From IMG/VR virus record IMGVR_UViG_2721755725_000014: a stretch of 39,038 bases of DNA. One strand, given 5' to 3'. Positions 36,001 to 39,000 of the stretch are shown piece by piece. Source of the stretch: a virus. Lineage: Duplodnaviria; Heunggongvirae; Uroviricota; Caudoviricetes. The position numbers are program-made. The stretch's first letter is position 1, and each line of letters opens with the position of its first letter.

Positions 36001-39000
36001 GAAGATAAGCGTAAGGCTGCGAAAGGTGAATAATGTCGCCGTCATTACGCAAGGCTGTTGCAGCTGCTATTGGTGGTGGGGCTGTTGCCATAGCGTCTGT
36101 GCTCATCACTGGTCCAGGTGGTAACGATGGTCTGGAAGGTGTCAGCTACATACCATACAAAGATATCGTTGGCGTATGGACTGTATGTCACGGACACACC
36201 GGAAAAGACATCATGCCCGGTAAAACGTATACCGAAGCAGAATGCAAAGCCCTCCTGAATAAAGACCTTGCCACGGTCGCCAGACAAATTAACCCGTACA
36301 TCAACGTCGATATACCGGAAACAACGCGCGGCGCTCTTTACTCGTTCGTTTACAACGTGGGCGCTGGCAATTTCAGAACATCGACGCTTCTTCGCAAAAT
36401 AAACCAGGGCGATATCAAAGGCGCATGTGATCAGCTACGGCGCTGGACATACGCTGGCGGTAAGCAATGGAAAGGGCTGATGACTCGCCGCGAGATTGAG
36501 CGTGAAGTCTGTTTGTGGGGGCAACAATGAGCAGGGTAACTGGATGTGGTGCTGGACGAGGCGAAGTCATGAGCGCCGGGATTTACCCCCTAATCTTTAT
36601 ATAAGAAACAATGGATATTACTGCTACAGGGACCCAAGGACGGGTAAAGAGTTTGGATTAGGCCGAGACAGGAGGATAGCAATCACTGAAGCAATACAGG
36701 CCAACATTGAGTTATTTTCAGGACACAAACACAAGCCTCTGACAGCGAGAATCAACAGTGATAATTCTGTTACGTTACATTCATGGCTTGATCGCTACGA
36801 AAAAATCCTCGCCAGCAGAGGAATCAAGCAGAAGACTCTCATAAATTACATGAGCAAAATTAAAGCAATAAGGAGGGGGCTGCCTGATGCTCCACTTGAA
36901 GACATCACCACAAAAGAAATTGCGGCAATGCTCAGTGGATACATAGACGAGGGCAAGGCGGCGTCAGCCAAGTTAATCAGATCAACACTGAGCGATGCAT
37001 TCCGAGAGGCAATAGCTGAAGGCCATATAACAACAAACCCGGTCGCTGCCACTCGCGCAGCAAAATCAGAGGTAAGGAGATCAAGACTTACGGCTGACGA
37101 ATACCTGAAAATTTATCAAGCAGCAGAATCATCACCATGTTGGCTAAGACTTGCAATGGAGCTGGCTGTTGTTACCGGGCAGCGAGTTGGTGATTTATGC
37201 GAAATGAAGTGGTCTGATATCGTAGATGGATATCTTTATGTCGAGCAAAGCAAAACAGGCGTAAAAATTGCCATCCCTACAACATTGCATGTTGATGCTC
37301 TCGGGATATCAATGAAGGAAACACTTGATAAATGCAAAGAGATTCTTGGCGGAGAAACCATAATTGCATCTACTCATCGTGAACCGCTTTCATCCGGCAC
37401 AGTATCAAGGTATTTTATGCGCGCACGAAAAGCATCAGGTCTTTCCTTCGAAGGGGATCCGCCGACCTTTCACGAGTTGCGCAGTTTGTCTGCAAGACTC
37501 TATGAGAAGCAGATAAGCGATAAGTTTGCTCAACATCTTCTCGGGCATAAGTCGGACACCATGGCATCACAGTATCGTGATGACAGAGGCAGGGAGTGGG
37601 ACAAAATTGAAATCAAATAATGATTTTATTTTGACTGATAGTGACCTGTTCGTTGCAACAAATTGATAAGCAATGCTTTTTTATAATGCCAACTTAGTAT
37701 AAAAAAGCAGGCTTCAACGGATTCATTTTTCTATTTCATAGCCCGGAGCAACCTGTGAACACATTTTCAGTTTCCCGTCTGGCGCTGGCATTGGCTTTTG
37801 GCGTGACGCTGACCGCCTGTAGCTCAACCCCGCCCGATCAACGTCCTTCTGATCAAACCGCGCCTGGTACCTCTTCTCGCCCGATTCTGTCGGCAAAAGA
37901 AGCGCAGAATTTCGATGCTCAACACTATTTTGCATCCCTGACACCAGGTGCAGCAGCGTGGAATCCTTCCCCGATTACCCTGCCTGCGCAACCTGACTTT
38001 GTTGTCGGCCCGGCGGGCACTCAAGGTGTAACGCATACCACGATTCAGGCGGCGGTAGATGCGGCAATTATCAAGCGTACCAACAAGCGCCAGTATATTG
38101 CCGTGATGCCTGGTGAGTATCAGGGAACGGTATATGTCCCTGCCGCTCCGGGTGGAATTACTCTGTACGGTACAGGTGAAAAACCGATTGATGTGAAGAT
38201 TGGGCTTTCCCTTGATGGTGGCATGAGCCCTGCCGACTGGCGTCACGACGTCAACCCGCGCGGCAAATATATGCCAGGTAAACCAGCGTGGTATATGTAC
38301 GATAGCTGCCAGAGCAAACGCAGCGACAGTATCGGTGTTCTCTGCTCTGCGGTCTTCTGGTCACAAAACAATGGCCTGCAACTGCAAAATCTGACCATCG
38401 AAAACACGCTGGGCGATAGCGTAGATGCAGGTAACCATCCGGCGGTGGCACTGCGTACTGATGGTGACCAGGTACAGATTAACAACGTTAACATTCTCGG
38501 TCGTCAGAACACCTTCTTTGTCACCAACAGCGGTGTGCAGAACCGTCTGGAAACGAATCGTCAGCCGCGTACGCTGGTGAGCAACAGCTACATTGAAGGG
38601 GATGTGGATATCGTTTCTGGTCGCGGCGCAGTGGTGTTCGATAACACCGAATTCCGCGTGGTGAACTCACGTACTCAGCAAGAAGCGTATGTGTTTGCAC
38701 CGGCTACGCTGTCCAACATTTACTACGGTTTCCTCGCCGTAAACAGCCGTTTCAATGCTTTCGGTGATGGTGTGGCGCAACTGGGCCGCTCGCTGGATGT
38801 TGATGCCAATACCAACGGTCAGGTGGTGATCCGTGATAGCGCCATCAACGAAGGTTTTAACACGGCTAAACCGTGGGCCGATGCGGTGATCTCTAATCGT
38901 CCGTTTGCGGGTAATACCGGCAGCGTAGATGATAACGACGAAATACAGCGCAATCTGAATGACACTAACTACAACCGCATGTGGGAATACAATAACCGCG

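Follow-up and report, generated by a model that had tools for sequence, protein, structure and literature searches.

A Rz'-integrase junction in a lambda-like prophage of mostly O111 Escherichia coli: probable inversion joint with a yfaQ-derived insert

The DNA examined here is the 39,038-nucleotide stretch of IMG/VR virus record IMGVR_UViG_2721755725_000014 (Duplodnaviria; Heunggongvirae; Uroviricota; Caudoviricetes), hereafter called the window, which holds a complete lambda-like prophage inserted at the classical lambda attachment site, attB-lambda (ybhB/ybhC), of Escherichia coli. Near its right-hand end, a 14-nt remnant of the spanin gene Rz (Rz') runs through a short stretch of DNA from the host gene yfaQ into codon 4 of a lambda-type integrase gene (int). 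We consider that this site is probably the surviving right-hand joint of an inversion inside the prophage, found in a mostly O111 lineage, in which the joint received a templated patch and the opposite end of the inverted block was later removed by a deletion associated with an insertion sequence (IS). We hold the structural account with high confidence and the repair mechanism with moderate confidence. The anatomy of the joint, the inversion relative to an O26 prophage, the yfaQ origin of the insert and its clonal inheritance are seen in the sequences; how many events took place and in what order, which enzymes acted and whether the integrase is expressed are matters that we infer from the arrangement described below.

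Anatomy of the joint and origin of its insert

The upstream side of the joint derives from the lysis cassette. The endolysin gene R ends with a TGA at 36528-36530, which yields a protein of 165 aa, and the Rz start overlaps this stop (ATGA), as in the native cassette. Alignment with int and with R-Rz relatives placed the breakpoints at 36540 and 36559. Identity of the R-Rz region to Stx2 phage 1717 and to the prophage of an O26 strain stops at 36540, leaving as Rz' (36527-36540, plus strand, 14 nt) the start codon, codons 2-4 and two bases of codon 5. Identity to the int genes of lambda, phage 434 and the O26 prophage begins at 36559 with codon 4 (AGG, R4), codons 1-3 (M-G-R) having been lost, and in every one of the other listed E. 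coli genomes with this int the match starts exactly at 36559. Between the two lies an 18-bp filler, TGGATGTGGTGCTGGACG (36541-36558), which matches neither the Rz nor the int parent.

A first-pass annotation, made from the sequence alone, had proposed an illegitimate-recombination junction that fuses the late lysis operon to an int deprived of its native start, and most of its anatomy agrees with the alignments. The R stop is where it was placed, 13 bp ahead of an in-frame ATG at 36544, and the frame stays open back to a TTG at 36496. The native start of int is gone, together with its ribosome-binding site (RBS) and the pI/xis region upstream, and the junction is indeed a non-homologous joint, with microhomologies of 2 nt (AC) and 7 nt (AGGCGAA). 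Similarity to int had been put at around 36556, and the lambda-type gene is present, but its identity starts at 36559; the fusion itself exists, but the partner is Rz, 14 nt of which are kept, and not R, because the R-Rz identity runs on to 36540. A search upstream of the junction for a native int start or xis-like sequence found neither, Rz' and yfaQ-derived DNA occupying that position.

Comparison of filler k-mers with the window, strain 11128, the O26 prophage, lambda, 434 and 1717 revealed no local template, the best hit being a chance-level 11-mer inside Q (~0.2 expected). The donor was found by an exact 18-mer scan of public genome contigs. The exact 18-mer occurs in more than 120 places in public genomes, mostly as chance matches in unrelated GC-rich taxa, and in 12 viral contigs, of which L009 and L011 are copies of the O111 prophage and the others are unrelated. 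Among the 132 loci with the 18-mer that were compared, the match continues for more than 3 nt beyond either side only in Escherichia loci and in the copies of the O111 prophage. On the Escherichia chromosome it gains 2 nt on the left and 7 nt on the right, giving 27 nt, and the donor is yfaQ, a core host gene present in 5,378 of 5,426 genomes. The carrier strain 1074-2 (O111:H8) holds the exact 27-mer in its own yfaQ, on the same strand and ~1.97 Mb from the junction. By chance, an exact 18-mer match in a 5.36-Mb genome has an expectation of ~1.6e-4, to which the nine extra matching bases add ~4e-5.

The 27-nt exact yfaQ copy, ACTGGATGTGGTGCTGGACGAGGCGAA (36539-36565, plus strand), is composed of AC (2 nt, shared with Rz), the 18-nt filler and AGGCGAA (7 nt, shared with int). 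Laid out as overlapping pieces, the joint reads ...GGGTA-AC up to 36540 on the Rz side, AC-TGGATGTGGTGCTGGACG-AGGCGAA across 36539-36565 in the yfaQ copy, and AGGCGAA-GTCATGAGC... from 36559 on the int side. Microhomology at each transition and a template for the insert in the same genome together make up a microhomology-mediated end-joining (MMEJ) or template-switching signature, and the insert is best read as a templated insertion copied from yfaQ, with microhomology at both transitions. Two other sources were considered and rejected: a diverged native int start (ATGG...GAAGAAGG against CTGGACGAGG), since the exact yfaQ match explains every base, and an IS-end footprint at the breakpoints, which found no support in the sequence.

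The junction is 100% identical in 46 of the 5,426 complete E. coli genomes, among them the reference strain 11128, and the carriers with a stated serotype are mostly O111:H8, O111:H- or O111:NM. It is inherited clonally. A sequencing artefact, one of the possibilities that the first-pass annotation had kept in view, is ruled out because the same junction appears in 46 independent assemblies of complete genomes. In one further genome, that of strain E2855, the junction region has apparently been lost. With this distribution (46/5,426), the junction provides a simple and specific lineage marker.

Inversion relative to the O26 prophage and competing accounts

In the O26 strain RM8426 (locus L006), the ybhC/ybhB site is likewise occupied by this prophage, but in canonical order, namely attL-int-xis-early genes-P-ren-nin-Q-nanS-S-R-Rz-terminase-portal-tail-J-nleH-cif. 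Q, LpxR, NinH, NinE and others have identical protein accessions in the two prophages. In this canonical arrangement, S-R-Rz and int lie on opposite strands, ~21.6 kb apart. When the window was compared with the L006 element by blastn, three segments aligned in reverse (window 36559-38288 with L006 1730-1, 24547-25302 with 29640-28885, and 8143-20318 with 44272-32094) and one aligned forward (window 28886-36540 with L006 15653-23320). In this alignment, the nin-Q-S-R-Rz' block is inverted relative to both of its flanks. Its retained part spans 26612-36540 (plus strand) and reads dnaC'-ren-nin genes-Q'-lpxR-Q-pR'/tR'-nanS-p-S-R-Rz'. The inversion is internal to the prophage, because the host flanks ybhB and ybhC are collinear and both att cores are present.

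Outside a mosaic patch at 28908-29087, the inverted block differs from its O26 copy by ~7 substitutions and one 14-nt indel (~0.1%). Identity to the cognate O26 block reaches ~99.9% over 29088-36540, with the same morons (lpxR, the Q remnant and nanS-p), and the O26 int allele is 100% identical from codon 4. At its left, over 26612-28885, the block departs from the O26 sequence and matches dnaC/ren of the mEpX1 type. RM8426 shares with the carriers the att site, the int allele, Q, lpxR, nin, nanS-p, S, R, the tail genes and the cif and nleH cargo, whereas it retains xis, the early genes, Rz and terminase, and the carriers have the ren-to-Rz' block inverted. The same xis-int sequence is present, as judged by sequence match, in O103, O145 and O157 strains.

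At the other end of the block lies an IS629/IS1203-type element of the IS3 family (25303-26611, minus strand; ends TGAACCGCCCCGGG... and ...GGGGCGGTTCA), which separates portal' from ren and the 3' end of a dnaC-like gene. A target-site duplication is lacking, the flanks reading ...ATCAT and CTTGC.... The adjoining segment, 24547-25302 (minus strand), comprises the 3' remnant of the portal gene and the start of an S49 protease gene and is 100% identical to L006 29640-28885; the portal gene is cut off at the IS and annotated as a phage portal protein fragment. Missing on the Rz side are the remainder of Rz, the genes for terminase and the portal gene's 5' part, and on the int side the first int codons, xis, the early genes and the replication genes. 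This absent DNA, which amounts at the IS to ~16-17 kb if sized by analogy with O26, corresponds exactly to what would span the left inversion joint. Both halves of a 300-nt query for that reciprocal joint, built from O26 sequence (Rz reverse-complemented plus int'/xis), were found together in 0 of the 5,426 genomes. A second IS629/IS1203-type copy is located at 1864-3183, among the effector genes; each of the two copies in the window shows ~99-99.6% identity with the IS1203 that interrupts R in strain 11128, and ~95-96% with the O26 copy.

The most economical history would be one inversion followed by one contiguous IS-associated deletion. Starting from a canonical ancestor (attL-int-xis-early genes-replication-nin-Q-S-R-Rz-terminase-portal-tail-attR), breaks would have occurred at Rz codon 5 and int codon 3/4, and the segment between them would have flipped. 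The Rz end would have been primed on the 2-nt match AC and extended by copying 18 nt of yfaQ, after which the extended end would have been joined to int via the 7-nt microhomology AGGCGAA, by a pathway of the microhomology-mediated, synthesis-dependent end-joining or template-switch type. The reciprocal joint, and with it xis and the early genes as well as the remainder of Rz, terminase and the portal 5' part, would later have been lost in one contiguous deletion beside the IS629-type element. The yfaQ insert would by accident have supplied an in-frame ATG, giving a full-length integrase in which M-G-R is replaced by M-W-C-W-T.

The first-pass annotation had favored a simpler event, an illegitimate deletion from the end of R to the start of int that took out xis together with the pL operon and left the late operon joined to int. 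The absence of xis and the early genes and the direct abutment of R-Rz' on int are as this account predicts. It is nevertheless very unlikely: because S-R-Rz and int sit on opposite strands in the canonical arrangement (O26 annotation, lambda), a simple deletion cannot place them head-to-tail, blastn finds the nin-Q-S-R block reversed relative to both flanks, and the terminase genes and portal 5' part, which lie beyond Rz, are missing too. The xis gene and the pL operon are indeed both absent from the prophage, but they were lost at the other end of the inverted block and not at the junction. A different possibility is that the nin-Q-S-R block was not flipped in place but came in, already reversed, from an infecting phage or a second lambdoid prophage, through illegitimate insertion or through recombination between oppositely oriented elements, and the mosaic character of lambdoid prophages in enterohemorrhagic E. 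coli (EHEC), together with the mEpX1-type dnaC/ren stretch at 26612-28885, speaks for it. We judge it quite unlikely, as the rest of the block (29088-36540) is nearly identical to O26 sequence at the same att site with the same morons and the ybhB/ybhC flanks are collinear. To be imported in reverse and take the exact place of the resident block, the segment would moreover have needed two or more illegitimate joints, with the resident copy lost, and the partner sequences that it predicts (Rz-terminase joined to int'-xis) are absent from the 5,426 genomes.

Recombination could also have been driven by the mobile elements themselves. In an IS-mediated scheme, inverted IS629/IS1203 copies in Rz and int would have recombined, the right copy then being imprecisely excised and the left one staying in place with flanking deletions. 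The IS exactly at the other block boundary, without target duplication, agrees with this, as does the IS activity of the lineage (IS1203 in R of 27 carriers; the copy at 1864-3183). Homologous inversion between IS copies would be expected to show an IS at both ends, and one is found at the left end only (25303-26611). The right joint contains no IS-end sequence, yfaQ covering all 18 inserted bases with microhomology on both sides, and joint k-mers of at least 12 nt match neither IS copy in the window. Given also the greater number of events needed (two insertions, recombination, a scarred excision and flanking deletions), we hold this scheme to be unlikely. Recombination between inverted att sites yields inversions, and the element encodes Int, which brings into view an aberrant Int-mediated exchange between secondary att-like sites in Rz and the int start. 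The breakpoints, GGGTAAC/CGTTATT and GGGAAGA/AGGCGAA, are unlike the core GCTTTTTTATACTAA, and conservative site-specific recombination does not insert 18 nt from a distant gene; with neither core-like breakpoints nor a conservative joint at the site, this explanation is extremely improbable.

Several considerations weigh against the in situ inversion with a yfaQ-templated patch, or at least against some of its steps. Because the left joint no longer exists, it is from orientation alone that we infer an inversion, and neither the second breakpoint nor whether it formed in the same event can be seen. RM8426 is a close relative and not the literal ancestor, having a P-type replication module where a dnaC-type remnant lies here. 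Priming on a match of 2 nt is minimal, and a simple fork template-switch model does not sit easily with a template located 2 Mb away on the other replichore. Templated insertions in E. coli end-joining were not found documented in the literature searched, and a reporter study of E. coli alternative end-joining (A-EJ) described only 'non-templated' additions of 2-21 bp, at ~1% of (translocation) junctions (PMC11297215). With an IS sitting precisely at the other block boundary, the part played by IS elements could be larger than we have assumed. As for the integrase, the stronger Rz' start described below may occlude or compete with initiation at the int ATG.

The chimeric integrase in a decaying prophage

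The joint opens a chimeric int ORF of 358 aa (36544-37620, plus strand; start MWCWTRRSHERR), in which M-W-C-W-T is followed by 434/lambda-type residues 4-356. The in-frame ATG noticed at first pass is also the start annotated by the Prokaryotic Genome Annotation Pipeline (PGAP) in strain 11128, where the protein is WP_000263438.1. From 36559, identity is 98% to int of lambda, 99.6% to that of phage 434 and 100% to that of the O26 prophage; in the protein, from R4 onward there are 0 differences from the O26 protein, 1 from the 434 protein and 5 from the lambda protein. The catalytic domain (PF00589, E = 2e-40) is that of a lambda-type tyrosine integrase, and the motifs around R212, K235, H308, R311, H333 and Y342 are unchanged in alignment to PDB 5j0n/1z1g. 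An arm-type DNA-binding domain (PF09003, E = 3e-31) is found at residues 5-71 (profile 3-74 of 74), and the core-binding (SAM-like) domain is present as well. Set beside 434/lambda Int (PDB 1z1g, 5j0n, 1kjk/2wcc), residues 6-358 equal family residues 4-356 and all domains are kept, whereas the start codon, G2, R3, the RBS, the xis overlap and pI are gone and the N-terminus reads MWCWT. The basic N-terminal tail of Int is reported to join in arm-site binding (Fadeev et al. 2009, cited in PMC4880445). The prophage has no annotated xis and none could be detected in it, and the parts of a functional lambda int-xis excision module (a native start overlapping xis, pI and Xis) are lacking. For annotation purposes, WP_000263438.1, the integrase of O111, is chimeric, its first five codons lying in yfaQ-derived DNA.

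The Shine-Dalgarno (SD)-like sequence ahead of the new int ATG comes from Rz codons 2-4, and its predicted pairing energy, -5.9 kcal/mol, is close to the -5.8 kcal/mol of the native start. The Rz' start, 17 nt upstream of the int ATG, has an SD pairing of -8.4 kcal/mol and opens a 25-codon junk ORF (36527-36604) that runs across the int start. The in-frame ATG itself is best regarded as luck, since a random 18-nt insert supplies one ~7-8% of the time, by a rough estimate. Farther upstream, Q (PF06323) is followed closely by a late promoter-like site, TTGCAA-17-TATACT, and a tR'-like terminator (32042-32125, plus strand), both of them consensus matches with a presumed function that follows from their position after Q. 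No plus-strand terminator-like site was found within 35772-37620, from S to the end of int, which makes read-through from the late operon into int plausible; Int might plausibly be made from Q-dependent late transcripts.

The lysis genes ahead of the joint are a phage-21-type class II holin S of 68 aa (35827-36033, plus strand; PF04971, E = 1.2e-32) and the endolysin R, a phage lysozyme (36033-36530, plus strand; PF00959, E = 8e-46) that is intact in the window. Both are 99.9% identical to their counterparts in Stx2 phage 1717 and form a phage 21-type holin and endolysin pair. Downstream of R, no spanin pair remains, with 14 nt left of Rz and Rz1 lost. Relative to the phage 21/1717 cassette (pinholin S21, signal-arrest-release (SAR)-type endolysin, Rz/Rz1), S, R and the R-Rz stop/start overlap are the same, whereas the spanins are gone and the cassette reads into int instead of the terminase region. 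Among the 46 carriers, R is intact in 12, such as 95NR1, E2863 and 8B, split by IS1203 at ~36179-36183 in 27 (strain 11128 being one) and deleted in its 5' part in 7, which also lack S. The intact S-R-int state, as in the window, is the minority and presumably the ancestral one. Because R is split or deleted in 34 of the 46 carriers, the arrangement shows no sign of being maintained by selection.

The prophage is bordered by ybhB (1-477), adjoining attR, and by ybhC (from 37755), past attL. The att core GCTTTTTTATACTAA is matched exactly in attR (568-582, minus strand; 0 expected by chance), from which the P arm runs to ~773, and again in attL (37694-37708, minus strand), which is separated from the int stop by the P' arm. 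Cognate att sites for a lambda-type Int flank the element: the attR P arm is ~92% identical to lambda/434 attP, and 37600-37708 (P' arm through core) matches lambda attP without a difference. In the attR P arm, an altered P2 arm-type Int site (~672-681) reads TAGTAACTAT where lambda and 434 have CAGTCACTAT. Excision makes use of three arm sites, P2 among them (PMC4880445), so its alteration may impair excision further. A second match to the 5' region of this int is present in each O111 carrier genome and may represent another lambda-type int, possibly with xis, that could act in trans.

The prophage has no Xis, repressor, complete replication module, terminase, full portal gene or spanins. Functionally, it appears to be a dead end, an element locked in the chromosome as a carrier of nleG, cif, nleH and lpxR. 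Since it would be unable to excise on its own, this effector cargo is effectively chromosomal, and the cargo probably explains why the dead prophage has been retained. The attR-proximal type III effector genes occupy 981-1634 (plus strand) and 3846-4301, 5359-6099 and 6414-7304 (minus strand). The families represented are NleG (PF06416), Cif (PF16374) and an NleH/OspG-type kinase (PF22303), and 981-1634 gives a weak AvrPphF-ORF-2-like match, below the Pfam cut-off.

Two further cargo genes lie within the inverted block. The lpxR moron, encoding a lipid A deacylase (29933-30892, minus strand), sits between a 72-nt antiterminator remnant (strain 11128, L001 12026-12097) and the intact Q, and this placement between Q remnant and Q recurs in the O26 prophage. 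The nanS-p-type sialate O-acetylesterase gene (SASA + DUF6645; 33529-35379, plus strand) is intact in the window; in RM8426, nanS-p (L006 20295-22159) is frameshifted by a 14-nt indel at the position matching window 33756. The RM8426 prophage has decayed separately in other respects, with ISEc22 replacing most head genes, IS600 and an IS3-family element in the early region, replication gene O frameshifted, and cII and sieB truncated. This is one prophage undergoing parallel but different decay in two EHEC lineages. Taken as a whole, the O111 locus shows a defective prophage with effector cargo decaying in an ordinary way, an event of a known kind that has left an unusually informative templated-insertion joint.

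Relation to known rearrangement and end-joining systems

Kusumoto and colleagues reportedly described, in 2011, IS629/IS1203-associated deletions in EHEC prophages that are promoted by an IS-excision enhancer. The present locus resembles such deletions in that an IS629-type element without target duplication stands exactly where ~16-17 kb are missing, and in that the 7 carriers without S and the R 5' part have lost sequence upstream of the position that IS1203 occupies in 27 others. It differs in that the Rz'-int joint itself contains no IS sequence.

A published account of the Rz'-int junction was not found in a search that did not extend to the original O111 genome paper. What the joint offers is a clean natural example, at an inversion breakpoint in E. 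coli, of an insertion that is templated and bordered by microhomology and has its donor 2 Mb away. A bolder reading, which we regard as unlikely, is that it records a naturally fixed, synthesis-dependent microhomology repair from a template megabases away, and/or that the re-started Int under Q/pR' is active and serves other lambda-att elements of these strains in trans. If this were true, wild E. coli would possess a templated-insertion end-joining or template-switch activity of a kind documented so far mainly in eukaryotes bearing DNA polymerase theta (Pol theta). Should such joints prove common, they would make end-joining or template-switch repair recognizable by a sequence signature in the genomes of wild enterobacteria, and the 'non-templated' additions of E. 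coli A-EJ experiments (PMC11297215) might merit whole-genome mapping.

Among known repair processes, RecBCD-dependent A-EJ in E. coli uses microhomology, according to Chayot et al. 2010 as cited in PMC11297215. The enzymes on which the pathways depend are RecBCD and LigA for A-EJ in E. coli, and those of replication restart for microhomology-mediated break-induced replication. MMEJ with templated insertions is characterized by short microhomologies and a short copied insert (PMC12426944). The Rz'-yfaQ-int joint, with its 2- and 7-nt microhomologies and its 18-nt exact copy, is similar both to MMEJ of this kind and to microhomology-mediated break-induced replication/fork stalling and template switching (MMBIR/FoSTeS). 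It departs from the MMEJ pattern in its donor and its host: templated insertions in MMEJ are attributed to Pol theta, which E. coli does not have, and they usually copy sequence flanking the break, whereas here the template lies ~2 Mb away.

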